From: a virus
DNA length: 64,000 nucleotides
UHGV virus genome: UHGV-0125682
Direction: 5' to 3' (one strand)
The notes beneath the pieces were generated by a model that was not told the origin of the DNA, ran no database searches, and saw only the letters and a list, made by a program, of their open reading frames with translations. The first letter of the stretch is position 1, and the number at the start of each line of letters is the position of its first letter. A program made the position numbers and the translations under genes. This document shows, piece after piece, positions 42,889 to 56,147 of this stretch.

Positions 42889-43022
42889 TCGCGTACCTAA
42901 AAAGAGAATTATAACCTCATCTTATCTTCAAGTGAGTAACCGCGTCTAATGGGAGGAATCATTTAAATGGCCAGGGCGATATAGATCCAGTCATGCCTCT
43001 CTATGGTTTCTCTGAAAACAAA

Positions 43023-43412
43023 TCATATAGCAGGACTATCATCAAATTCACCGCCCCTGGCGTCATTGATAATGTGGGTGATCACACCAAAAACAGCATT
43101 ACTACCCGTGTAACCATCGTCATCTACTGGTAACGCCTCTTTCTTCCCGGTGCTTAAATCCTCCAGGTGCTGGCGCGGATACTTCCGGTATCTTTTTACG
43201 CGATATTCTCCCTCCATAGCGCATATAAGCAGTGAGCCATCAACCGGAGTAAGTGAGGAATCAACCACCAGCAAAGCACCTTGCAATATTCCCTCACGGT
43301 GATGGCTGTCTGCCGCCCGCATGAAGTAGGTCGCTGAAGGATGTCTGATTAGTTGCTGATCAAGAGAAATACGGCTTTCAACATAATCCGCCGCAGGAGA
43401 AGGGAAGCCCAT
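43023..43412 (-). CDS. humD: UmuD'-like protein (P1 HumD homologue)
   Basis: 129 aa; GFPSPAADYVE...HPSATYF... matches UmuD' N-terminus; LexA box at its promoter. Confidence 0.85.
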   Translation of the reverse strand: MGFPSPAADYVESRISLDQQLIRHPSATYFMRAADSHHREGILQGALLVVDSSLTPVDGSLLICAMEGEYRVKRYRKYPRQHLEDLSTGKKEALPVDDDGYTGSNAVFGVITHIINDARGGEFDDSPAI

Positions 43413-43430
43413 AGCGTTTTACCTTAATGA

Positions 43431-43450
43431 TACTGTTTATTCATACAGTA
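43431..43450. promoter_or_regulatory. LexA (SOS) box
   Basis: TACTGT-TTATTCAT-ACAGTA between humD and divergent 43603 gene. Confidence 0.8.
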
Positions 43451-43602
43451 TACATTGAAAAGGCATAGTTTGTGAAAGCGGGGTTTGTAAGCAACGCCGC
43501 TGGCGGCAAGGTCTACGTTCACCTTGTCTCGCTCTTCCTGGCTTTTAGCTGCTATATTTCGATCTGACACAAGAAACCTCCAGGAGTTAGTGGATCAGGC
43601 AC

Positions 43603-43953
43603 ATGCACAATAACGTTCTCAATGTTAGCCGTTCAATTCAGACAATCAGAGACTGCACCAGTGTGGTGGCATCAATCCCATTGCGAAACAGCATAGACGA
43701 ACTGCAAATTCGTGTATTGAATCCGAATCAGGCTAATAAGCAATTGCGCTTTATTTTGACGCTGAAAAGTGAAACAGAGGGGATAAAGCACAGCGTAAAA
43801 GTGTTTTCTGAGGCCATTCTGCTTAATGGGAAGCTCCGGCATCTGGTAAGGCCAGAACGTCAATATCCTGACGTCCTGGCGCGTGAAAAAGACCTTCTTT
43901 CTGAAGTTCAGGATAGGGTGATCGATTTCGTCAAATGCTATCCCCTGCATTGA
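43603..43953 (+). CDS. Hypothetical protein (possibly LexA-regulated)
   Basis: 116 aa; divergent from humD across the LexA box. Confidence 0.5.
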   Translation: MHNNVLNVSRSIQTIRDCTSVVASIPLRNSIDELQIRVLNPNQANKQLRFILTLKSETEGIKHSVKVFSEAILLNGKLRHLVRPERQYPDVLAREKDLLSEVQDRVIDFVKCYPLH

Positions 43954-44222
43954 GGGCAGGTGTTCCCTTCCGCAAAGTAGGGAAAACTGCTATCAAGTTC
44001 ATCACACCATCTGCGATGGTCGTAGCACCAAAACGCCTCCCACGGTGCACGGAAATACTTCATCCACCAGGACACTCGATCAGGTATATCTGCTGGTGGC
44101 AGTTCTTCTGGCAATAATTTGCCTGATAATTCCCTTTCCGCCCGCGACAGCATTTTTTTGAGGCTCGCGTTCTCTTTTTCAAGCTCATCTACGCGCACCT
44201 GTAATTCAGCTTTCGTTGGCAT
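43938..44222 (-). CDS. Hypothetical protein with C-terminal Cys cluster
   Basis: ~94 aa from MPTKAELQ...; ends ...CPQCRG. Confidence 0.4.
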   Translation of the reverse strand: MPTKAELQVRVDELEKENASLKKMLSRAERELSGKLLPEELPPADIPDRVSWWMKYFRAPWEAFWCYDHRRWCDELDSSFPYFAEGNTCPQCRG

Positions 44223-45711
44223 GGTCCGCCTCATGCTTTTCAGCCACCAGCGGCAATAAAGCCCTGGCCATCTTATGAACCAATAGTGCATCAATAATGC
44301 CAAGCGTATGCCCCGGCTTAATGTTTAATGCCGCCTCAAGGTGACACCTTTCCAGGCCACTTTTCTCGGCTTGTTTATGATGATCTGGTGTAATAACGTC
44401 GCCCAAAACACGGCTAATTCTTTCTCGTAATTGCTGGGTGCCAGCACACTTGATCGCTGTATCGTGGAGACGGTTAACCAGTTCGCGATAAACATGCGGC
44501 TTAATTCGGATACGTTCACCGGTGACGCCCTTTCCTGGTGCTGGCACCGAACTATCCGGAATATCCGGATAGTTGCCTGCCAGTCTACGCAAAACGGCCT
44601 TAACAGCCTCAATACGGTCATCATCGCAATTTTCCAGCGTATCTATGCGATCGAGCATGATGATGGCGTTATCAATATCAGGATTGCCGGTCCACTCATT
44701 ACCGCGATTGGATTCGGCAGCCTGGTTGCCGCGTACTGGTTGATTATCGGCTTTACCCAGTCTGTCGTTGCTGCATGAATGCCCTTCCAGCAAGGCCAAT
44801 GCTTGTCGCATGAAATACGCAATATGTTTGCCGTGGTAATCGTCTTCATCGATGTGAAAAGCGATACTGCGGATGTATTCAATTGCGTTTTCAATGGCCT
44901 CCGGCGTTATCGGCGCTGACATATTTTGATTTTGGAGTGCCAAGACGCGACTGGCATCCTCAACGTTCTTCACTGCATCTGCGCAGTAGTTATAGCGATT
45001 GCATTCCACTAACTTCTGCTTGAGATTTTCAATTGCTTGCGCGACATCAGCCTGTATTTCCGGAACTGGCGGAACGGCTGTCTGCTGCTCTCGAACGTCA
45101 TTAGTCGCTATCGGTTCTGCTGCCAGCTGACTGGCATATTTGTTAATGGTAACGATAAGCTCTTGCTCGGCCTCATCCAGACAATCACCGATACCTCGCC
45201 TGTCACCGTCAAAATCATCGAAATCGGCACGAATCTTGGCAACCTTCTGGATTGCGGACAACACCTCACTAGGAATTACCGGATAGTTGGTTGACGTTTC
45301 CGCGATTTCCCGAAAATTATTGGTTGACGAATTCTTGTTTTCCCGAAAGTTTCCGGACTGAAGCATGGCTTCGCGGCAATCGTTCCAGCCTGTAGCGTAT
45401 GCAGCCGCTTTGCTGCTGCCTTCAACTGGCGCATCCTGCCAATACATTTCTTCCGGCACTACCTGCACCTGAGGGGTGGCGTAGAGTGGAATTCCTCCCC
45501 CTCCACCAGAAAATTCATTGCGAGCGTTATACTCACGACCATCTGCGTCATCACGCATCCACGCCACCGGTTCTGCTTCCAGCGATGCCAGCGCGATACG
45601 AAACACATTGGCAAGCAGGCTGTCTGAAGATTGGTTATCGTGCGCCGGGTCGCTCAGGAAGCCTGTGATGAATGATTTAATCTCCGCACGTTCTTTGGTA
45701 ATAGTGGTCAT
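44206..45711 (-). CDS. Hypothetical protein; C-terminal module shared with 54184-54798
   Basis: 501 aa; Gly5 run; C-terminal ...KPHVYRELVNRLHD...GTQQLRERI... Confidence 0.55.
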   Translation of the reverse strand: MTTITKERAEIKSFITGFLSDPAHDNQSSDSLLANVFRIALASLEAEPVAWMRDDADGREYNARNEFSGGGGGIPLYATPQVQVVPEEMYWQDAPVEGSSKAAAYATGWNDCREAMLQSGNFRENKNSSTNNFREIAETSTNYPVIPSEVLSAIQKVAKIRADFDDFDGDRRGIGDCLDEAEQELIVTINKYASQLAAEPIATNDVREQQTAVPPVPEIQADVAQAIENLKQKLVECNRYNYCADAVKNVEDASRVLALQNQNMSAPITPEAIENAIEYIRSIAFHIDEDDYHGKHIAYFMRQALALLEGHSCSNDRLGKADNQPVRGNQAAESNRGNEWTGNPDIDNAIIMLDRIDTLENCDDDRIEAVKAVLRRLAGNYPDIPDSSVPAPGKGVTGERIRIKPHVYRELVNRLHDTAIKCAGTQQLRERISRVLGDVITPDHHKQAEKSGLERCHLEAALNIKPGHTLGIIDALLVHKMARALLPLVAEKHEADHANES

Positions 45712-45721
45712 GTGTTACTCC

Positions 45722-45985
45722 TTAACCCGCAGTGCTTTCAACTGATGAGGGGAACAAAATCTTTTCATCAAACCCTGCATTCATATCATGAACAGCAACA
45801 CACCAATCCATCGACGAACGATTATCAAGAGCCTCCATGATTTCATCCATGCGGCGCAGGTCATACAGGTAAATGCTTTTATCGCCAATGGTGTAAAAGC
45901 CAATTTTTTTCGGTGATGGACAGCGATCAAGAACGTCCTGTAATTCGTTCAACCATGCCCGTTCTTTTTTTGTTAAAGTTGCCAT
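45722..45985 (-). CDS. Hypothetical protein
   Basis: 87 aa from MATLTKKERAWL...; RBS AAGGAGA. Confidence 0.5.
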   Translation of the reverse strand: MATLTKKERAWLNELQDVLDRCPSPKKIGFYTIGDKSIYLYDLRRMDEIMEALDNRSSMDWCVAVHDMNAGFDEKILFPSSVESTAG

Positions 45986-45986
45986 A

Positions 45987-46175
45987 TCACTCTCCTTTAG
46001 TGCGCAAATGGTTTTTCCAGCGGTTTTGCGCCGCGCTGGGCTTTTTGCAAAAACCACAATCCATCATCCCGTAATATTTCATCAACCCCATCCGTCGGTT
46101 GCTGAGTCTCACCCACTGCCAGACGCCAGGAGCGTTTCTACGAACTAACAGAATCTTTGCTTTACGGTTTTTCAT
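45987..46175 (-). CDS. Hypothetical small basic protein
   Basis: 62 aa ORF. Confidence 0.3.
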   Translation of the reverse strand: MKNRKAKILLVRRNAPGVWQWVRLSNRRMGLMKYYGMMDCGFCKKPSAAQNRWKNHLRTKGE

Positions 46176-46347
46176 CGCTTTGCTCTCCTGCGTCTCTTTG
46201 CTGCTCGTCGTGCCGCTGCAATACCGGTATGGCGGCGCTTTGGTGCCGGGATGATGTTGTCAGCCATCAGGACATACGGCTTTGCAATTAGCGCAGAAGC
46301 CCAAAAACGAGTCGGGTACGGTAACAAGCCGATACATGCCACACGCA

Positions 46348-47109
46348 TTACTCACCTCCTTTGATGCGAATGCCTGCAGCGCGGATTGCAGCGATGACTT
46401 CAGAAACTTTGTATGCCATTACCGTTTGGTAATCATCGTGAAAATCTGTTCGATGAAGCATGCTGCTACGTTCCGGGAGCGATATTTCCCGAGCATCCAG
46501 TTCCTTAACGCGTTCCTCCAGTTCGTAGACCCTGCATTGTTCTCTATCATCAATCAGATATAACCCAAGACATTCGCTTTCTACCCAACCGCCAAAATCA
46601 TGATCGTAACGCTCACATGAAAACTCACCGTCACCGTCCTTTGTTGGAATGGTGTAACTATCTAATGGGCCACCATATGTCGGCACATTTCCCAATGTTG
46701 GATGCTCAATCCACATGAAAAATGCACGTCCGGTTATTGGGCAAATATCTGGCCGCCATTGGTTACGAACAGCCTTGGTTTCGGATAATTCTTCAGCGTG
46801 TTGTTTTACTTCCTCAAGCTCAACTCTCAGCTTCCCTACCGTTAGCGCAATATCCTCGTTCTCCTGATCGCGGCGTTTTATGTATTGCTGGTTTCTTTCC
46901 CGTTCATCCAGAAGCGCCAAGACGGTAGCCGGATTGGCTGCGGCGATGAATTCAGCATCACGAGATTCGTTTTCACTGAACACCATAGCTATTTGCTCAT
47001 GGTTTATGCCGTCAGTGGAGTAAATCTCATCGTCGAATTCAACAGCCCACTTACCTTTCGTAGCCTTCTCTGCCGCCTCACGCAGTGCCTGATAGTCAAT
47101 CTTGCTCAC
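46348..47109 (-). CDS. Hypothetical protein (MSKIDYQALREAAE... N-terminal family, Ea22-like)
   Basis: 253 aa; N-terminus shared with 47847-48032. Confidence 0.55.
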   Translation of the reverse strand: MSKIDYQALREAAEKATKGKWAVEFDDEIYSTDGINHEQIAMVFSENESRDAEFIAAANPATVLALLDERERNQQYIKRRDQENEDIALTVGKLRVELEEVKQHAEELSETKAVRNQWRPDICPITGRAFFMWIEHPTLGNVPTYGGPLDSYTIPTKDGDGEFSCERYDHDFGGWVESECLGLYLIDDREQCRVYELEERVKELDAREISLPERSSMLHRTDFHDDYQTVMAYKVSEVIAAIRAAGIRIKGGE

Positions 47110-47410
47110 TGGCAGCCTCCTTTGCCGGGATTTCTAACTTTTGAGTGGTTGTATCAAATTCAAACAACTTAACCACGTCATCAAACAGGACATAATCACC
47201 ATCAGGATCTTCAGTCATATCTGCGCCACAATCCTGACCGCACGAGTCGCAACCATCCATATCAAGCTCGTATCGCTTCAGGTTTGCGATATTTGATAAA
47301 TTCAGCGCCAGTACAGCCAGGTCATAAACCTCTTCGGCAGTGACATCGCTGTTCAGTCCCATTTCATGGCGATATATGATTTTTTCTACCCGTTGTTTTG
47401 TGATTGTCAT
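47096..47410 (-). CDS. Hypothetical acidic protein
   Basis: 104 aa; overlaps neighbours by a few nt. Confidence 0.45.
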   Translation of the reverse strand: MTITKQRVEKIIYRHEMGLNSDVTAEEVYDLAVLALNLSNIANLKRYELDMDGCDSCGQDCGADMTEDPDGDYVLFDDVVKLFEFDTTTQKLEIPAKEAASEQD

Positions 47411-47850
47411 TTTTGCTCACCTCCCTGTTCTTCCAGAAAAATACGCATAGCCTCAAGCATCTCTTCGGTGTCATACGGTGACAACTTGTCACGCAGGATG
47501 TGTTCAATGCTGTTAATGAACTTGCGGATTGCTTTGCGTTCAATTTCAGCCAGGAAAGCGTCGGTGGCTGACATATTTCCTGTTGCCTTCATGGCCTTCA
47601 AAATAACCAGAACGCCATCTCGCCCAACCACCTCAGCGATAACCTCAGTGTTGTCGCCAACAACATCGCAGAATGCCTGAACTGCCTTACGAGCCAGCTC
47701 ATTCTCCACTGCCAGCGCCGCGCACTTGGCCTCAAGAGCGGCAACCACTTCCTGATGGTCTTTGTACTTAACGTATGAGCCGGAGATGTCATCACCTTCG
47801 GTGTTTAGCCATGCGTCATTGCAATTCACTGCGTAGGTTCTGATGCTCAT
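47407..47850 (-). CDS. Hypothetical protein, ATDAFLAEI...EQ(L/I)RKGG paralogue family
   Basis: ~147 aa from MSIRTYAV...; motif shared with 51553, 52191, 53392 genes. Confidence 0.5.
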   Translation of the reverse strand: MSIRTYAVNCNDAWLNTEGDDISGSYVKYKDHQEVVAALEAKCAALAVENELARKAVQAFCDVVGDNTEVIAEVVGRDGVLVILKAMKATGNMSATDAFLAEIERKAIRKFINSIEHILRDKLSPYDTEEMLEAMRIFLEEQGGEQK

Positions 47851-48032
47851 GTTGATGCTCTCCCGCCCCTGACAGACGCCAGGCCAGTCAATAAAGTATC
47901 CGCACAATGCCTACCCTCAGACGTGCGCGCAGGATAAATGCCGTTATGACCCGGCAAAATATATGCTACCCATTCATCTTGCGTTGCCTGTTCCGCCGCC
48001 TCGCGCAGTTCTTGATAGTTAATTTTGCTCAC
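47847..48032 (-). CDS. Short ORF with Ea22-like leader fused to unrelated sequence (possible remnant)
   Basis: GTG start; first 22 aa match N-terminus of 46348-47109, then divergent. Confidence 0.3.
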   Translation of the reverse strand: MSKINYQELREAAEQATQDEWVAYILPGHNGIYPARTSEGRHCADTLLTGLASVRGGRAST

Positions 48033-48720
48033 TGGTTGCCCCCTGAATACGCTTAAACTCGATTACCCACACCCAAGGATTAGCGTTCCAACTATCTTCG
48101 CCATAAATTGATTTCCATAGGCTACGGAAACATGGGTAATGCTTATCGCCAATGAGGGTCGATTCTGTTGGTGCGCCCTCAGCCCTTGCATCGCATTCGC
48201 TGATATCGTTCAACCGCTCAACGCGCACGTTGGTAATTTCCAGAAGAATGCGCGATGCCCAGCGCGGCATGTGAATTGATGGACACCACCCGCCATCAAA
48301 TTTTTCATTCACAGTGTGAGGTTTCCAGTCGGCATCATCGGGTATCGACCACAAGCCGTAATCACCCGGCTTTTGCTCACAACTGGCCCGATAAATCCTT
48401 GCTGCGTTCTTCTCATCGCCACGACAAAGGTTGTCGTTCCAGTCCACACTGCAACCATCCTCATTGCCTAATATCGCCCACGCCTCACGGACCCATATGC
48501 GATCACCAACGTTACCGAACGGGCATAAACCATGTTCAGGTGCATCCATAACGTGGGTATAGACACCATTGCGTTTCTTTGTCGGTTTACGGATAACCAG
48601 GCAGTTATCGGCCCTGACATTTTTTACAGGTCGGCGAGTCTGCGTCTTCCTTCCTTCGAGGATGGCCCTGACCATCTCATCGTTAAAAATCATCCCGCGT
48701 TCTTTCATTTTTTGATCCAC
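48019..48720 (-). CDS. Conserved phage protein (MIFNDEMVRAILEGRKTQTRR N-terminus)
   Basis: 233 aa. Confidence 0.55.
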   Translation of the reverse strand: MDQKMKERGMIFNDEMVRAILEGRKTQTRRPVKNVRADNCLVIRKPTKKRNGVYTHVMDAPEHGLCPFGNVGDRIWVREAWAILGNEDGCSVDWNDNLCRGDEKNAARIYRASCEQKPGDYGLWSIPDDADWKPHTVNEKFDGGWCPSIHMPRWASRILLEITNVRVERLNDISECDARAEGAPTESTLIGDKHYPCFRSLWKSIYGEDSWNANPWVWVIEFKRIQGATSEQN

Positions 48721-48724
48721 CTCA

Positions 48725-49720
48725 TCAGTTATTGAAAGTGATCACTCCGCGCTCGATGGCGAAGTCAAAAAGCTGGTTAGCGGCTACGTAAAGGCGTATG
48801 CCATGTGCTTTTTCCCATGCCCGGACATCGTTTTCTGCGCTTCTGGCGCAGTCATCGCAAAGAGGAACAGCCCAGCGGTCGTGTTCGTTTAACGAGCGGG
48901 CGCGGTACATGAACGGGTGGTTAACTTTGCCACCGCATCCGATGCACGGACGAGAAACCACAAACCGGAGATAAGCCGGGCTTTTACCGAGGACCGCTTT
49001 TGGTCGGCGCATATAAAGCAGGCCGGAATCCTCATCTACAGACAGGTTGACGATCTGCTCTGCGGTTATGTCCACCAGCTCGCGGGTACTGTGCTCCCAG
49101 GTGATATCTGATTCTTTCAGCGTACCGGTAGGGATTTCAGTTTTTGGCTGACAAAATGCAATGCGACCGGCTTCATCTGGCAGCTCATCTTTCAGATTCC
49201 GGCGAATGGCCCAAAAAGTGAGTTCAACCATGCTCAGATCGCGTTCTGGCGGTAGTTTTAACTCGCTCGCAGCCCAGTTCATAACCCAGTTGGCACGATT
49301 CAGGGATAACTGGTCGTCCAGCTTGCTGTACCCCTTCATCATGTATTCCGCATCATGCTTCCAGCACAGGCGAACGGCAGAGCCGTTATAGAAATGAGTG
49401 GTTAGCTGGTGGCTGCAATCGCGCTTATCGTGCGCCTGGCAATCGTGGATATTGGAACTTACCCAATGAACAAGCGAATCTTCACCGCCCAACGCGTTAA
49501 ATACGCGCTCGCTTTGAAAAAACGGTTTCAGAGACTGGTTGGCAACCAGCGAATAATTCAGATCCACTACGCCATCTGGCGTGTTTTCAGCCTGTTCACG
49601 CGGAAGTGGGGAGATAATGAAACGGCGACCTACGCCAATGTAGTTACTGGTGGGCTTGTCTACCGGAAAGACAGCCACACCAGCTCCGTTTACGAAATGA
49701 GGTGTGATTATTGCACTCAT
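48725..49720 (-). CDS. Hypothetical protein, possibly DUF968-like
   Basis: 331 aa; Cys/His cluster ...RPCIGCGGKVNHPF...CDDCARS... Confidence 0.45.
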   Translation of the reverse strand: MSAIITPHFVNGAGVAVFPVDKPTSNYIGVGRRFIISPLPREQAENTPDGVVDLNYSLVANQSLKPFFQSERVFNALGGEDSLVHWVSSNIHDCQAHDKRDCSHQLTTHFYNGSAVRLCWKHDAEYMMKGYSKLDDQLSLNRANWVMNWAASELKLPPERDLSMVELTFWAIRRNLKDELPDEAGRIAFCQPKTEIPTGTLKESDITWEHSTRELVDITAEQIVNLSVDEDSGLLYMRRPKAVLGKSPAYLRFVVSRPCIGCGGKVNHPFMYRARSLNEHDRWAVPLCDDCARSAENDVRAWEKAHGIRLYVAANQLFDFAIERGVITFNN

Positions 49721-49762
49721 AATGTATACCGACTCTGTTTTGTTCCGAGCGGTAAAATAATA

Positions 49763-49793
49763 TGTTAGAAAACTAAAATCAATGTTCTAACAC
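49763..49793. promoter_or_regulatory. Operator-like motifs (TGTTAGAAAACTAAAAT plus TGTTCTAACAC)
   Basis: Recurring motif between two genes of the leftward operon. Confidence 0.45.
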
Positions 49794-49817
49794 ATTTTGA
49801 GTGCGTAAATGATTTGA

Positions 49818-50510
49818 TCAGACTTTAAGCTGCCCTCCCTTCACCTGCATTAGCGTCAGATTTCCGCAAAAAACCGCGCCCGTGTCTATGTAGTGCTGAT
49901 TCCAGTATGCTTTTGGTCTTCGTACCGGTGTGTGCCCAAAGATAAAGCGATCTGCGCCTGTGATTTCTCCACCAATGCCATCTATCGAATCACCGACGCG
50001 ACTGCGCGACCAGACAACATCAAAAAGCGACACATCCTTACCGAACTGGTACTCTCCACCTGGATAGTCGGCATGGGCTATAACGATAGTTTCATGCCCG
50101 GTGTTCAGCTCAATGATATAGGGAAGACGTCTTACCAGCTCCACCAGCGCCCTGGCTAATATTTCCCGATCAGCGTCCAGCATGAAGAACCATTGACCGC
50201 CATTCATTAGCCAGTTATTCACATTGCCTGCGGGACTTAACGCATCGATCATTAATCGCTCGTGGTTTCCCATAACCGACCGAAACCAGGGCATCTGCAA
50301 TAGCTCCAGGCATTCAACATTTTCGGTGCCGCGATCGATAAGGTCGCCAACCGATATCAGTAAATCCTGCGCCGGGTCAAAATCCACACGATGGAGTTCA
50401 TTCATAAGTAGGGTGTAGCAACCGTGCAAATCACCAACAACCCATATGTTTCTGTAGCCTGAACCATCAATACGGCTATATAAATTCACTTCATGCAGCG
50501 CCTGGTTCAT
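49818..50510 (-). CDS. Ser/Thr protein phosphatase (lambda-phosphatase family)
   Basis: GDLHGC, GDLIDRG, GNHE metallophosphatase motifs. Confidence 0.85.
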
Positions 50511-50818
50511 GCGGCAACCTTCTCCCGCAGCCAGATACAAACCGGGCCATCTTCAGTGTCATGAATAGAGCCAACAAACCATCCTTCGCCCGCTGGTCGC
50601 TCTGGTTCCCAGGCGGCAATATCGGGACCATCTGCGTCCAGATTAAAATCATCTTCATCCATACTGCGAATAGTCCACTGAAGATTATTTTCCTTCATCC
50701 AGGCGTCAAATTCCTCAGTGGATATATATTCACGACCTGCGCAAAACTTTTCATACTCCGGATGTGTCCAGCAGCCATATTCATCACGTTCTACCGGCAT
50801 TTCTTTAATTGTGCTCAC
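50507..50818 (-). CDS. Hypothetical protein
   Basis: 103 aa. Confidence 0.45.
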
Positions 50819-51039
50819 TCTTCATCCTCCAAGTCGGCAACGGCATCCATCACATCAGAACCGCGAATAAACTCAAAAGCACGGCAAGCCATTTCAAACA
50901 CCTGTTGTTCTTGCGGATGCGGTGACTCCCAATACTTAAAACCAGGTCGATGCTCGTAACCCATCATGGAATAAAAATCGCCAGCAAGTTCAATCGCGGC
51001 ATCAACAAGTTCGCGATTTGTCATCGTCTGTTCTGTCAT
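50815..51039 (-). CDS. Hypothetical protein
   Basis: 74 aa. Confidence 0.4.
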   Translation of the reverse strand: MTEQTMTNRELVDAAIELAGDFYSMMGYEHRPGFKYWESPHPQEQQVFEMACRAFEFIRGSDVMDAVADLEDEE

Positions 51040-51311
51040 TTTGTTTTCTCCTGTCTGAACATCACTATCATCAGGTCGCCTTTTGTCGCTATCCTCGCTG
51101 TTGTGCCTGGTTCAATGCTGCCAAGTTCAAATGCGTCATAGAACGCTTCTAATGCCTTCAGGCGTAGTTCCTGTTTGCGCCGTTTTTTCCACTGTTTCAG
51201 GAAAATGGAACCCAGCCATCGCCATGTACGGGACATGATGTAAAGCCAACCGAGAAGTGCCAGACCGGTATTTAGGGCCGTATCGAGCGTTATCGTGGTG
51301 TCGATATTCAC
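51036..51311 (-). CDS. Hypothetical membrane protein
   Basis: 91 aa with TM segment. Confidence 0.4.
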   Translation of the reverse strand: MNIDTTITLDTALNTGLALLGWLYIMSRTWRWLGSIFLKQWKKRRKQELRLKALEAFYDAFELGSIEPGTTARIATKGDLMIVMFRQEKTK

Positions 51312-51556
51312 TGTGGTGGCTCCTGCTTTTCTGCCTTTAATACCATGCGAGAACCATCATCCAGCTCCCAATTAATTTCACCGCCTTCAGCCATGACTAG
51401 ATGCCAAACGAGTTGTGCGGCCTCGTTGGTTACATCACGACCGCGATCATTGCCGACACGACGTTTTGTTCCATCCCCTAAGTCACGCATTTTTGCCAAC
51501 ACGATGGTTTTTGATAGCGGTGAAAAACCAAGCTGTAGTCGTGCGGTATTACTCAC
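51308..51556 (-). CDS. Hypothetical protein
   Basis: 82 aa. Confidence 0.4.
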   Translation of the reverse strand: MSNTARLQLGFSPLSKTIVLAKMRDLGDGTKRRVGNDRGRDVTNEAAQLVWHLVMAEGGEINWELDDGSRMVLKAEKQEPPQ

Positions 51557-52194
51557 TGTTTGCCTCCTTTTCGAAGCTGGTCAGCGAACCTATCAGCTGC
51601 ATCCGCGCAAGCAGAAGCAACGGAATCAAAAAATGGATCATCTCCGGTATCGCGCATCGTCAAAGCGAATGCCTCCACCCCTTGTGCCTGTATTTCTACA
51701 AGGTATGCCTTAGATGTAGTGCTTTTCGCCTCGCCTAATTCGTTATGAGCGATGTTCGCTATACATGCGATGTCTATATCTGGATGATTAATTGGGCAAT
51801 GGCTAAGAATTGCCTCAAGTGCTGCTTTTTTGCTTTGGCATTCCGCCACCATCGCCCCGCAATTGCTTTCATATTCGGCAATACGCTGTTTAGCAGCCTC
51901 CAGCTCAACACGCAGCTTCTCAAGCGTTAGAGCCATCTCCATGTTCTCGTCCAGCAGTTCAATCACATCAGGATCGCTATCATCAACTACTGTTATGCGC
52001 GATTTTTTGTAATGCTCGTCAGCATAAGTTCGTCCAGTTTTGAAGCATCCGTCGTCCTCCATGCCGGAACAGGCATAAACAACATGTGATCCAGATATGC
52101 GCTGCATTGACATTTCCTCGCCACAAACAGAGCATTTAGGCGCTGGTTTCGGTGAAAAACGTTCACGTAACGTATGATAGTAAAGCTCGCTCAC
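51553..52194 (-). CDS. Hypothetical protein, N-terminal zinc ribbon, paralogue-family C-terminus
   Basis: 213 aa; CSVCG...YACSG; ends ...FADQLRKGGKQ. Confidence 0.5.
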   Translation of the reverse strand: MSELYYHTLRERFSPKPAPKCSVCGEEMSMQRISGSHVVYACSGMEDDGCFKTGRTYADEHYKKSRITVVDDSDPDVIELLDENMEMALTLEKLRVELEAAKQRIAEYESNCGAMVAECQSKKAALEAILSHCPINHPDIDIACIANIAHNELGEAKSTTSKAYLVEIQAQGVEAFALTMRDTGDDPFFDSVASACADAADRFADQLRKGGKQ

Positions 52195-52988
52195 TGGCTG
52201 CCTCCTTTGCGAAGCTGTTCAGCGATATCTTCGAGAACGCCATCAGAGAATGAGCGGTCAAAATCGCCTTCCCGCGCATTAGCCATAAACTCAGTAGAGG
52301 TAAGAATCATCCGGGCAATATCCGCGGCGTTCTTCGCAGTATCATCAATAAAACCAGCTTCCCAAGCAGCCAGCATTCTGTTCGCCACAAAGTAAGCGCC
52401 CTCCTTGCGTGCTTCAGTCTTCACTTCATCCAGGAAAGTGTCGGTCGCAGGAGTGGTTTTTTGTGGTGATAGGGCGATACGAATTGTTTCAAGAGCTGGA
52501 TCTATTTCCACTGTTGGCACTTTGATAAAACCAAGCTGCACGCCATTCATAATGAACGTGCGGCGATCCTCACATATCGCCTTCAGTCTCGCATTCTCCG
52601 CAGCCAGCGCCGCGCGATTACCCTCCAGCTCTGCAATGCGCTGTTTTGCGGTATCAAGTTCAATCGATAATTTTTCCAACTGCTCTTTATGCTTCTTATA
52701 TTCCTGATATGCGTGCCAGGACTGACCTTTGCGCACACTATCAGTAATATCAGTAATCTGTTCTGGTGTTAGCGTAGTCAGTGGCTGTGCTGGGAAAATC
52801 AGCACTTTCCCGGAATCCCAATCAAAACCAGCGTGAATTGACTGAACCTCAACTGAGGGTGTTGAACCAATGCTGCCAGGCGAATGAACAACGATCGTTA
52901 CATCCATATCGCGACGATGGCTGTGGTTGTTGGACAAAATACGATTCACCAACTCAGAAAATTTGGAGAATTTCATGCGGAGCCTCAA
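52191..52988 (-). CDS. Hypothetical protein, paralogue family
   Basis: 265 aa; ...ATDTFLDEV...AEQLRKGGSQ. Confidence 0.5.
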   Translation of the reverse strand: MRLRMKFSKFSELVNRILSNNHSHRRDMDVTIVVHSPGSIGSTPSVEVQSIHAGFDWDSGKVLIFPAQPLTTLTPEQITDITDSVRKGQSWHAYQEYKKHKEQLEKLSIELDTAKQRIAELEGNRAALAAENARLKAICEDRRTFIMNGVQLGFIKVPTVEIDPALETIRIALSPQKTTPATDTFLDEVKTEARKEGAYFVANRMLAAWEAGFIDDTAKNAADIARMILTSTEFMANAREGDFDRSFSDGVLEDIAEQLRKGGSQ

Positions 52989-53395
52989 TATGCAAAATAG
53001 ACCGTTGCCACGCCGTTATAGTGATCAAACGATACGGCGTTTACTTCATAGCTGGCAGGGAGCTTCGATCCGAGAACATATCCGGGCCACGTTTTCCATG
53101 GAATTTCTCTACTCTCACTATCCCCATATACCGTACATCCAAGTGAACCTACAGCTTCATTAGAACGCGTGCCGCACGTTATGAATCCCAGATTTTGCTT
53201 ACTGCTCTTAATGGTGATTGAGTGAACGCTGGCTGATGCATTAGCAGCACGCTGTGCCTGTTGGTTTGCGATATTCGCAGAGTTCGCAGCAGCTACAGCA
53301 GCCGTAGTCGCGGCGGTAGAGGCTACAATAGCTGCTGAAGCATGCACTTGTTGGATATTCACCAACAATGCCGCGACAAAAATCATCTTCTTCAC
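52985..53395 (-). CDS. Secreted protein (signal peptide)
   Basis: 136 aa; MKKMIFVAALLVNIQQVHA. Confidence 0.5.
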   Translation of the reverse strand: MKKMIFVAALLVNIQQVHASAAIVASTAATTAAVAAANSANIANQQAQRAANASASVHSITIKSSKQNLGFITCGTRSNEAVGSLGCTVYGDSESREIPWKTWPGYVLGSKLPASYEVNAVSFDHYNGVATVYFAY

Positions 53396-53880
53396 TTGTC
53401 AGCTCCTTTGCGAATCTGTTCCGCCCATTCTTCAAGGGATTTCTCCGCATATTCACCGGACAGGCCATCAATCGGGTGCGGTTCATTAGCCAACTCTTCT
53501 TTCGCTGACAGAATCATGCGTGTAACGTCGAAAACTTCACGTAAAGACTTATTGATAAATCCGTGGTTGAAAGCAGCAGCAAGACGGCTTGCGGTATAGT
53601 TAATCCCCTCGTTGCGAGCCTCCGCACGAATTTCAGCCAGAAAAGCATCGGTGGCTGGAGTTTCGCTGTGGTGCAGGGCATCGTTGATAATCATTGCAGC
53701 AACTCCGGCCTGCCCTGCATCCGTGACCGACACATGCTCAAGAGTTACAGCCATTGCATGTTTCAGCCCAGCATTCTCCGCCGCCAGCGCCGAGCGTTCT
53801 TTCTCAAGTCGGGAAATTTCCGTTACATACTCAGCGTTACGCTCTGCCAGTTGTGCTGGCGTTAAACCTTCAGACTTCAT
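53392..53880 (-). CDS. Hypothetical protein, paralogue family
   Basis: 162 aa; ...ATDAFLAEIRAEARNEG...AEQIRKGADK. Confidence 0.5.
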   Translation of the reverse strand: MKSEGLTPAQLAERNAEYVTEISRLEKERSALAAENAGLKHAMAVTLEHVSVTDAGQAGVAAMIINDALHHSETPATDAFLAEIRAEARNEGINYTASRLAAAFNHGFINKSLREVFDVTRMILSAKEELANEPHPIDGLSGEYAEKSLEEWAEQIRKGADK

Positions 53881-54187
53881 GTACTCTCCTTTCGAAATAA
53901 ACGTACTGATTAATCATGCTCAAGGGCATTTCGAGTTTTTCTGCGATCTCACGGCGGGGAACACCACACCGATGAAGCTGCCGTGCCAGTTCTATATCGC
54001 CCTGCCGGTATTTGGCTGACGGGTGAAAGTCTCCTTTCAGAATCATGCAGATCCGCAGTTGCCGCGCTTTGGTTCTGACAGCACTACCGGTACGCCCGAT
54101 CAGCCTCCCAATACTCTCGACTGTCATAGTCCCGGCGCACTGGCGGAGTATCATGATTTCTGCCCTTCCCCATCCCCGCCAGCTCAC
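53870..54187 (-). CDS. Putative DNA-binding protein (HTH)
   Basis: ~95-105 aa; HTH-like ...VPRREIAEKLEMPLSMINQYV. Confidence 0.45.
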   Translation of the reverse strand: MSWRGWGRAEIMILRQCAGTMTVESIGRLIGRTGSAVRTKARQLRICMILKGDFHPSAKYRQGDIELARQLHRCGVPRREIAEKLEMPLSMINQYVYFERRVHEV

Positions 54188-54798
54188 GCAGAACTCCTTC
54201 TAACCAAAAGAACGCCATCTTCAGAAACAACGTTGCAGGACTTCAGGTAATTCATTGCCTCTTTCGGTAATGGATTCTTTGGATCGGCGTTTGCCAGGGA
54301 TTTCGATAACCTCATGATAAATTTGATCATTACCTTCTGGCGGAGCTTGTGCTCATGAGATAAAGACAGGTAATAGGAAATGGTATGGGCTAAACGCTCA
54401 CGAAGCTGTTCTGTGCCGTGATATACAGCAGCGATATCACGCAGTGCATTGACCAGTTCCCGGTAAATATGCGGAGCAACCTGGCATTCAATGTTGGTTG
54501 GTGACTCATAAATTACAGTCAGCCCCAGCTTTTCAGCCAGCGCGTGCTCTGCACGAGCACCAATCGATTCCTCCCATCGATTGAGCAAGTAGATCGCATC
54601 AGCAGAACGCACCATTGCCAGGCAAATATCCATGTATTCACTCTGACAAAGGCCACCAGGTAACACAGCTGGATTCAGAACGATATGCCCTTCAGCCATC
54701 AGCTCGCTCGCTTTCGCATTAAACGCCGCACGGTTGTAGTCTGGATAACCAGTCATCGGCCCCGCGATGTAAATTTTCAAAACACGTCTCACCATCAA
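54184..54798 (-). CDS. Nucleoside 2-deoxyribosyltransferase-like (DUF4406-type) protein with extra C-terminal module
   Basis: KIYIAGPMTGYPDYNRAAF...GHIVLNPA...; C-terminal ...PHIYRELVNALRD...GTEQLRERL shared with 44206-45711. Confidence 0.55.
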   Translation of the reverse strand: MMVRRVLKIYIAGPMTGYPDYNRAAFNAKASELMAEGHIVLNPAVLPGGLCQSEYMDICLAMVRSADAIYLLNRWEESIGARAEHALAEKLGLTVIYESPTNIECQVAPHIYRELVNALRDIAAVYHGTEQLRERLAHTISYYLSLSHEHKLRQKVMIKFIMRLSKSLANADPKNPLPKEAMNYLKSCNVVSEDGVLLVRRSSA

Positions 54799-54989
54799 AA
54801 TTTCCCCAGCATCGTGACGAAAAACATCAGCACGGCAAAAAGCTCAATACCTAATTCAAGTAGCGCCAACGCCCCGAAAAAAAACACATAGAACAGGCCA
54901 ATCTCATTCACAGATGGCTGGTGGATCGCACTTAAAGCTATAAGCATCATGTCCTCCAAACATTTATCAGTGATGATATTAATGTTTTG

Positions 54990-55006
54990 TGTTAGAAAAT
55001 CAATTT
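54990..55006 (+). promoter_or_regulatory. Operator-like motif (TGTTAGAAAATCAATTT)
   Basis: Between the leftward operon and ref-like gene. Confidence 0.45.
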
Positions 55007-55067
55007 TGAATATCTAACTGCTTTGATCAATCATAGAAAAATCGCTGAAAAGTAAGAGGCAGCCATC

Positions 55068-55646
55068 ATGCAGAAACAGAGCTATTGGGAGAAACAGAGA
55101 CAAAAAGCCATGCAAAAATTGGCTGACCCAGCCTGGCGAGAGGAACAAAGGGCAAAGCGCCTTCAACAAGCTCAACGCCAGCAGCAGCGAGCGAGAGAAA
55201 AAGCCGCATCGCCTGAATATCGGCAAAAGAAAATTGAAAAAGCAAAGCAATATGAACAGCGGAGAAAAGATAAAGCTGTATCCGCTCCGTCCAAAAAAAC
55301 ACGCACGTCACGCGGCCTGAAAGGCAGATCACTCACAGCCGATGAACGCCGGATACAGACCGCTATCGGTGCTCTCCCCTGCATTGCCTGCCATATTCAC
55401 GGGCAACATAGCCCAGTGGTATCCCTGCACCATATCTTCGGGAGAACGGCAGAGAACGCGCATAAATATGTCCTCCCTTTGTGTAAATGGCACCACCAGT
55501 ACGCAGCGCCAGCCGAGGTCAGAGAACAATATCCCTGGCTGGTCCCTGTTCATGCTGACGGAAAAATAGGCGGAAAAGCAGATTTCATGCGGCACAATGC
55601 CGATGAAATGACGTTGTATCAGATGGCGATTGAGTTGATAAATTAG
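55068..55646 (+). CDS. ref: HNH-type nuclease, P1 Ref-like
   Basis: 192 aa; K/R/Q-rich N-terminal ~95 aa then ...CIACHIHGQH...HHIFG...PLCKWHHQ. Confidence 0.5.
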   Translation: MQKQSYWEKQRQKAMQKLADPAWREEQRAKRLQQAQRQQQRAREKAASPEYRQKKIEKAKQYEQRRKDKAVSAPSKKTRTSRGLKGRSLTADERRIQTAIGALPCIACHIHGQHSPVVSLHHIFGRTAENAHKYVLPLCKWHHQYAAPAEVREQYPWLVPVHADGKIGGKADFMRHNADEMTLYQMAIELIN

Positions 55647-55657
55647 TTTTCTAACAT
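55640..55657 (-). promoter_or_regulatory. Operator-like motif (AAATTAGTTTTCTAACAT)
   Basis: Exact consensus instance just after ref stop. Confidence 0.45.
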
Positions 55658-55976
55658 TTTAAGTTGAATTGAAAAACTCTCCGATGTACATTCACTACCG
55701 ATTGGCACACCGGTCAACTTTTTGAGACAAACTGTTTAGTTTTTCGTATTATTGCCTCCGCCATACCTATGGCGGTGCAATATAGGTGGCTGAAAAGCCC
55801 CCGTTGACTCACGGTGTTCCAGCCTTTATTGCGCCGCCACCAGACCGTGGAACAGTCGATGGCGGCTCCGAAAGCAAGGAGTCACAACACTATGAACAAC
55901 TACAGTCTTTTCCCATCACTCGTCTTCCACCACTCACGCGATAATCTGCATTCTTTGCTCGCGCCGGGGGTGTCAA

Positions 55977-56147
55977 AATGACTGTTCGCTACCTCAACTT
56001 TCAAATCAAGAACATTACTGGCGGTTGCTATGACTGGTTTGTCACTCTCGGAAAAGAAGTGATCACCGGGAAGCTGGATGAAGTGAAAGCTAAAGCAATG
56101 GCCTACGCCTGCAAGCAAGTCAGGAAGAAATCCGCCAAAGCATAAAA
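55977..56147 (+). CDS. Possible small protein (below ORF-track cut-off)
   Basis: 56 aa MTVRYLNFQIKNITGGCYDWFVTLGKEVITGK...; terminator-like hairpin downstream. Confidence 0.25.

Follow-up and report, generated by a model that had tools for sequence, protein, structure and literature searches.

The viral sequence UHGV-0125682, a 64,000-nucleotide stretch of DNA that we refer to in its full length as the window, encodes two proteins that share a short segment near their C termini: a 501-amino-acid (aa) early accessory protein and a 204-aa protein with a DUF4406 domain (Table 1). We find that this segment is very probably a discrete, portable domain, about 40 residues long and part of a large, undescribed family that has no Pfam or NCBIfam model and falls within the familiar mosaicism of phage genes. 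An initial annotation had listed both open reading frames (ORFs), which stand in the ORF list exactly as given, and had taken the segment as a specific link between them. The link does not hold: the module is found in 1316 protein clusters with dozens of partners, DUF4406 accounts for about three of the best 150, and distant DUF4406 homologues lack the module, so that it does not specifically connect the 501-aa and DUF4406 proteins.

The motif PH(I/V)YRELVN.L.D.A....GT.QLRER has exactly two matches in the six frames of the 64-kb window (regular-expression search), at 44422-44496 and 54397-54471, which correspond to residues 405-431 in the 501-aa ORF and 109-135 in the 204-aa ORF. BLASTP aligns residues 402-450 of the first protein with residues 106-155 of the second (22/50 identical, 46.6 bits), with an E value of 1e-10 for the pair and 2.4e-9 within the set of 21 operon proteins. 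The match between the two segments is well beyond chance, and on this E value we rejected a chance similarity. Outside the segment, BLASTP finds no further similarity between the two proteins. The initial annotation was correct that both proteins carry a significant common motif, but the motif does not end them. After the aligned block, 56 residues follow in the 501-aa protein and 55 in the 204-aa protein, the two tails are mutually unrelated, and the segment is a module inside the C-terminal region of both. At the nucleotide level the two copies are 49% identical over 44 codons, and 12 of the 19 identical residues are encoded by different codons. Selection therefore acts on the protein rather than on the DNA, a recent duplication or gene conversion is excluded, and the same differences argue against a segment kept as a recombination junction. 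Both copies are old; each was acquired independently and has been maintained by selection at the protein level.

The extent of the family emerged from an exhaustive HMMER profile search, in which four module copies served as the profile against 1.84 billion representative proteins. This search returned 1316 clusters (50% identity) at E ≤ 1e-3, 295 of them at E ≤ 1e-10, which bears out the proposal of a common module. Positional statistics were taken from the best 150 of the 1316 clusters, where 148 proteins contain one copy and two (P0124 and P0139) contain two in tandem. In this set the module lies a median of 146 residues from the N terminus and is followed by a median of about 30 residues. 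It is N-terminal in P0235, P0243, P0257, and P0261, and stands alone in P0159 (53 aa), P0172 (55 aa), P0262 (59 aa), and P0149 (67 aa). An even shorter stand-alone ORF of 46 aa (MQPHIQRELVNKLRDAAVRYHGTQQLRAVIARLVQEALEGGKNWTL) is located between primase and helicase in Klebsiella Drulisvirus, while the Vequintavirinae phage A73 has a 54-aa module ORF in a cluster of small ORFs upstream of primase/helicase. In Krischvirus Phi1, a 99-aa protein with a C-terminal module adjoins topoisomerase II. Some deposited lytic phage genomes carry the stand-alone module ORF without annotation, namely Klebsiella phage henu-LMZ (about 1501-1641 of the retrieved locus, between primase and helicase) and Serratia phage Kashira (2001-2135 of the retrieved locus, in an intergenic gap).

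A tblastn search with the 50-aa segment located 207 places in 204 phage records, from hosts that include Escherichia, Klebsiella, Salmonella, Proteus, Cronobacter, Serratia, and Pectobacterium. These phages include T4-like, T7-like, P1-like, P22-like, and Vequintavirinae members, with strictly lytic lineages among them. Partner domains in 138 scanned members were DUF551 (10), DUF3850 (4), Ead_Ea22 (3), ASCH (3), and a few others, and most members had none. P22-type EaA proteins have the order dATP/dGTP pyrophosphohydrolase domain, module, DUF551, and in phage ST64T this arrangement is split as eaa1 and eaa2. No Pfam or NCBIfam family covers the module in the 138 scanned members, and the stand-alone proteins give only sub-threshold noise against Pfam at E ≤ 10. 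The PHROG families that contain the module (38634, 21459, 5781, 20174, 21749, 29262, 12031, and 15065) are all labeled 'unknown function', and we found nothing on the module in the literature on DUF4406, pmgU, EaA/P22, and DUF551/Ea22. Two narrower searches added little: a homologue search by word index, run with the profile of the 50-aa module, gave only six uninformative candidates, and a locus search with a four-sequence module alignment gave three loci, one of them a mis-binned E. coli phage contig, which is no measure of taxonomic breadth. What stands out is the extreme conservation across very different phage types together with the stand-alone occurrence. The module could be registered as a new domain family, and it provides an annotation handle by which more than 1300 clusters of 'hypothetical', 'EaA', or 'PmgU' proteins could be divided into defined domains.

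Two observations concern high-GC sequences. Contig CAYTNJ010000061.1, assigned to a 'Candidatus Peribacteria' metagenome-assembled genome (MAG), has a 610-aa ORF (43-1875) that opens with the module's second half (NRLRDIAIEYSGTQQLRERI), contains GT2-like and GT1 glycosyltransferase domains, and is cut off at the contig edge; this is a fusion partner beyond the phages of Enterobacterales. The module protein P0255 shows a sub-threshold match to the Lar restriction-alleviation model (19.4 bits versus a cut-off of 39.6). The match is too weak to be used as a Lar fusion and is no more than a hint of a counter-defence context.

The core of the module reads [K/P][P/D]-H-x-[Y/F]-R-E-L-V-N-x-L-R-D-x-A-x-x-[Y/F]-x-G-[T/C]-x-Q-L-R-E-x-[I/L]. 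Structure prediction, which the initial annotation had proposed as a check, yields a helix-loop-helix. Using a 41-sequence module alignment, AlphaFold predicts two helices for the copy in the 501-aa protein, 405-421 and 428-439, at predicted local distance difference test (pLDDT) values of 90-96, while the flanks reach only 49-75 and the overall predicted template modeling score (pTM) is 0.35. The confident helices, the poorly placed flanks, and the low pTM together indicate that the module behaves as a self-contained unit held by linkers. The same hairpin is predicted in the DUF4406 protein (helices 109-126 and 132-145), joined to the DUF4406 domain by a linker (residues 101-109) with pLDDT <50. 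Since a 46-aa stand-alone protein occurs naturally, the hairpin must fold and act by itself.

Among 121 distinct cores, H1, R4, E5, L6, V7, N8, L10, D12, A14, Q22, L23, and R24 are 96-100% conserved, figures that are inflated for the profile's own columns because the set comes from the best 150 matches to a four-sequence profile. The pattern is clear despite this selection. On a helical wheel of the same cores, helix 1 displays a conserved hydrophobic arc (positions 2, 3, 6, 7, 10, 14, and 17) and, on the opposite side, a polar arc (positions 1, 4, 5, 8, 11, and 12) in which each position is 89-100% conserved.

Helical hairpins usually gain stability from contact with a second hairpin or with a protein partner. 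The broad hydrophobic arc, the strictly conserved exposed polar face, the stand-alone occurrence, and the variety of partners lead us to suggest, tentatively, that the module is a protein-protein interaction adaptor that works by self-association, by docking to a common partner, or by both. This is our preferred reading, and it agrees with the partner-binding or targeting domain proposed in the initial annotation, which is plausible. Mosaic recombination has attached the module, flanked by flexible linkers, to a wide range of unrelated early accessory proteins, mainly in phages of Enterobacterales. In the D6/P1-like phage-plasmid, two recipients lie in one leftward accessory operon: the mosaic protein of PmgT/PmgU type and the DUF4406 enzyme, which resembles nucleoside 2-deoxyribosyltransferase (NDT) and DNPH1. 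The hydrophobic face would pair with another hairpin to form a helical bundle, or with a partner, and the polar face (H1, R4, E5, N8, R11, D12, Q22, R24, and E25) would be the docking surface for a common factor of the host or the phage. In this way the module could oligomerize or localize its fusion partner, and the stand-alone 46-67-aa form could act directly on the common factor. Should it prove to be an interaction tag, the assembly or targeting of many unrelated accessory enzymes of phages would be accounted for by a single short sequence. It is also easy to probe, as a naturally stand-alone protein of 46 residues could be used directly as bait.

Several points weigh against an interaction adaptor. 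No homology to a characterized domain supports a particular function, and a Foldseek search of the module model against the PDB returned nothing below E=4, a two-helix hairpin with floppy flanks being too small for a fold search. The inflation of the conservation figures described above applies here as well. The net charge of the core, counted manually, runs from 0 in the 204-aa copy to +3 in the 501-aa copy and the consensus, and nucleic-acid binding is possible. Most phage records hold a single detectable copy, as the tblastn counts show, which means that the general function cannot lie in the pairing of two different module proteins. It is just as conceivable that the hairpin is a passive structural spacer.

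A narrower proposal is that the module docks onto one conserved host factor of Enterobacterales, for example a replisome or defence component, and so serves as an 'address tag' across T4-, T7-, P1-, and P22-like phages and Vequintavirinae. We consider this unlikely. The stand-alone 46-67-aa versions in lytic phages would then inhibit or modulate the host factor, and the fusions in temperate phages would deliver nucleotide-directed enzymes (DUF4406, dATP/dGTP pyrophosphohydrolase, or ASCH) to it.

The main alternative, likewise improbable, is binding of nucleic acid: as a minimal helix-turn-helix (HTH) or a hairpin dimer like that of Rop, the module would recruit its fused enzymes to DNA or RNA, with the stand-alone forms acting at the replication fork. 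Several of the partners do act on nucleotides or nucleic acids (NDT-like DUF4406, dATP/dGTP pyrophosphohydrolase, and ASCH/DUF3850), stand-alone copies adjoin primase/helicase in two unrelated lytic lineages, and the Krischvirus module gene lies beside topoisomerase II; early-gene clusters, however, adjoin replication genes in most phages anyway. The consensus core is positively charged and keeps R4, N8, R11, Q22, and R24, but conservation is just as high for the acidic E5, D12, and E25 as for the basic residues, and the 204-aa copy is net neutral. Neither window protein nor the stand-alone members match an HTH model in Pfam, and for the latter no HTH or other DNA-binding match appears even at E ≤ 10. 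In classical HTH motifs, Ala(5) and Gly(9) are four residues apart, whereas the conserved A14 and G19 of the module are separated by five.

The module could also be a functional extension of the DUF4406 enzyme, such as an active-site lid or a dimer contact resembling the C-terminal tail of NDT enzymes, and the 501-aa protein would have captured a fragment of such a gene. In NDT-family catalysis, C-terminal residues of the neighboring subunit take part, and PHROGs 355, 20174, 21749, and 15065 span the end of DUF4406 plus the module, so the combination recurs. Among DUF4406 proteins, however, the module is confined to close relatives (P0001-P0066), whereas the distant homologues P0068-P0120 lack it and consist of a bare domain (many of 112-116 aa) or have quite different N- or C-terminal additions. 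DUF4406 is absent from all 138 module proteins scanned by Pfam and, as noted, rare among the best 150; moreover, the linker is poorly ordered in the model and the module also occurs alone. We therefore regard the extension as very unlikely, and an obligate DUF4406 part was rejected on the module-less distant homologues and the other partners. Least credible is a DNA-level origin of the similarity by recent intragenomic duplication, gene conversion, or a junction that promotes shuffling: mosaic genes that share further blocks abound in the operon, and relatives swap whole domains at such boundaries (P0081 and P0136), but the low nucleotide identity, the different codons, and the retention of the amino-acid pattern in T4-like, T7-like, P1-like, P22-like, and Vequintavirinae phages have already largely refuted it.

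Among known systems, the closest to the module are the early accessory proteins of lambdoid and P22 phages (Ead/Ea22 PF13935, DUF551 PF04448, and P22 EaA), which occupy the same niche in early repressor-controlled operons. They are likewise built as beads on a string with flexible linkers, and in relatives the module is fused to these same domains. Ea22 occurs as mosaic variants with a swappable C-terminal domain, DUF551 included (PMC10834534). Unlike Ead/Ea22 and DUF551, the module is a separate sequence family matched by neither PF13935 nor PF04448, is much shorter (about 40 aa), and extends to strictly lytic phages (T4-like, T7-like, and Vequintavirinae). By analogy only, the module resembles the Rop/ROM hairpin dimers, which are likewise small helix-loop-helix structures that can exist as a protein of 50-60 aa. 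Rop/ROM-type hairpins normally pair into a four-helix bundle for stability. The module has no sequence match (Pfam at E ≤ 10) or structural match (Foldseek against the PDB) to Rop/ROM.

Table 1. Positions of the two module-bearing genes and their parts in the window
Feature	Coordinates	Strand	Basis or remark
501-aa early accessory protein, P1 PmgT/PmgU-like	44206..45711	-	ORF list; 'EaA' in the annotation of some relatives
Module copy 1	44377..44508	-	501-aa residues 402-445; BLASTP, regular expression
Module copy 1, core helix-loop-helix	44395-44499	-	Residues 405-439; AlphaFold
501-aa C-terminal tail	44209..44376	-	Residues 446-501; predicted helical, low confidence, pLDDT 54-68
DUF4406 + module protein	54184..54798	-	204 aa from TTG 54798; 203 aa from ATG 54795
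DUF4406 domain	54508..54777	-	Residues 8-97; predicted NDT/DNPH1-like fold
Module copy 2	54352..54483	-	204-aa residues 106-149; BLASTP, regular expression
Module copy 2, core	54364-54474	-	Residues 109-145; AlphaFold
DUF4406-protein C-terminal tail	54187..54351	-	Residues 150-204; low-confidence helices, pLDDT 35-52

The DUF4406-like assignment of the 204-aa protein was confirmed by PF14359, which matches residues 8-97 with E=1.1e-33 (116 bits versus a cut-off of 22; model positions 2-91 of 91). Both a DUF4406 match and a significant motif, on which the initial annotation had staked its proposal, were thus found. Its NDT-like reading is also borne out at the level of the predicted fold. PHROG 355, 'nucleoside 2-deoxyribosyltransferase', matches the protein (5.9e-43), and the AlphaFold model of the domain is confident over residues 21-100 (block-mean pLDDT about 86-97). 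In a Foldseek search of this model against the PDB, the top ~30 matches are NDT, DNPH1/Rcl, MilB, BcmB, and BlsM, all with a probability of 1.00, and the best match is 2a0k (E=4.4e-4). By sequence, the 204-aa protein has no meaningful match in the PDB. The DUF4406 part is therefore NDT/DNPH1-like in its modeled fold, with no implication for activity or substrate. In common with NDT, DNPH1 (Rcl), and the MilB-BcmB N-glycosidases it has an N-terminal YIAGP-type loop, and its near-invariant E84 is a candidate catalytic residue. Across 64 homologues, conservation reaches 90% or more in the columns Y10-I11-A12-G13-P14, S78, G80, and E84, and a weak profile alignment (E=0.16) places E84 on a Glu of Trypanosoma brucei NDT (2a0k), which we take to be its catalytic nucleophile, Glu82. 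Unlike the solved enzymes of the NDT superfamily (130-160 aa), to which its sequence similarity is marginal, the DUF4406 domain comprises only ~100 aa and lacks the C-terminal part.

Translation of the DUF4406 gene probably begins at ATG 54795 rather than at the listed TTG, because this ATG forms a TGATG overlap with the stop of an upstream 54-aa ORF and the homologues are 203 aa long and start with MVKRVLK. The tail behind the module is present only in the close relatives P0001-P0066, a D6-like DUF4406 subgroup.

The 501-aa protein is itself a mosaic. In its gene, 7 nt separate an AAGGAG ribosome-binding site from the ATG at 45711. Residues 212-501 are 98% identical to orf104 of phage D6 (360 aa), with the first 211 residues replaced. 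In tblastn against phages, the protein breaks up into blocks with separate distributions (1-217, 38-260, 251-333, 266-389, and 378-489). Block 1-217 has matches in Shigella and Shiga toxin (Stx) phages, and the N-terminal segments separately match proteins of P7, Stx phages, and Shigella phages. Block 266-389 matches P1 'EaA', and residues 378-489 are 95.5% identical to P1 PmgU (111 aa). PHROG matches are segmented in the same manner (1-124, 101-261, and 352-501), and the protein has no sequence match in Pfam, NCBIfam, or the PDB. Its C-terminal tail is kept together with the module in the PmgU-type proteins P0126-P0138 and P0143.

P1 PmgU is essentially the module plus this tail and corresponds only to the C-terminal part of the 501-aa protein. 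The two genes occupy the same genome position, between the pmgS/pap region and hot/humD. In P1 (AF234173.1, 2300-3369) two overlapping ORFs in different frames encode PmgT (309 aa) and PmgU (111 aa), whereas the window has a single 501-aa ORF with different N-terminal blocks. The P1 record labels pmgT and pmgU only with a 'putative morphogenetic function', and annotates the pmgT-pmgU-pmgV operon as controlled by the C1 repressor through the operator OpmgT (formerly Op88).

Window positions 43000-56000 match D6, a P1-like phage-plasmid of Escherichia, with 96% identity over 60% of the length, and show patchy, weaker matches to RCS47, P1, P7, and SJ46. Both module genes belong to a single long minus-strand array of accessory genes that runs from ~54959 down to 43938 and is flanked by a ref-like gene and the hot/humD genes. 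The neighbors of the DUF4406 gene encode Ead/Ea22-like, ASCH-like, Ppp phosphatase, and PdcB-type HNH proteins and small proteins without assigned function. The initial annotation had seen a hint of DNA-base modification, and nothing in this neighborhood points to such a pathway. PF13935 (Ead/Ea22-like) matches the neighboring ORFs 46348-47109 and 51553-52194, and a Pfam scan at E ≤ 1 gives no match of this model to the 501-aa or 204-aa protein. PADLOC returned only noise.

A comparison of the 21 operon proteins revealed four more pairs with common sequence blocks, all on the minus strand. ORFs 52191-52988 and 53392-53880 are 37% identical over ~150 C-terminal residues (E=1.6e-21), and 51553-52194 shares a block with 52191-52988. 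The first 21 residues are common to 46348-47109 and 47847-48032, and a 25-residue coiled-coil stretch is common to 46348-47109 and 51553-52194. The accessory block 46348-53880 is assembled from shuffled modules. Because the same operon holds these four other pairs, a shared block does not tie the 501-aa and DUF4406 genes into a common pathway. Their sharing is ordinary mosaicism with no evidence of a common pathway or of DNA modification, and for the window itself the message is a modest one, the gene-gene link being one example of such mosaicism.

Further rearrangements are seen within the block and among relatives. The 61-aa ORF 47847-48032 (minus strand) opens with an Ead/Ea22-type leader and overlaps, in another frame, a 166-aa ORF with a TTG start (47407-47907). 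The pair 47407-48032 may be a truncated or frameshifted gene; its homology to D6 orf100 ends after the first ~30 coding bases, which does not inform the question of a frameshift. In homologue P0081, a DUF4406 domain is joined to the C-terminal domain of window ORF 46348-47109, and in P0136 the N-terminal part of ORF 48019-48720 is joined to the module-bearing C terminus of the 501-aa protein. A D6-like DUF4406 protein and its neighbors, near-identical to the window, are also present on JAFAFN010000164.1, a 3.2-kb contig of an 'Actinomycetes bacterium' MAG that is almost certainly a mis-binned fragment of an E. coli phage-plasmid.

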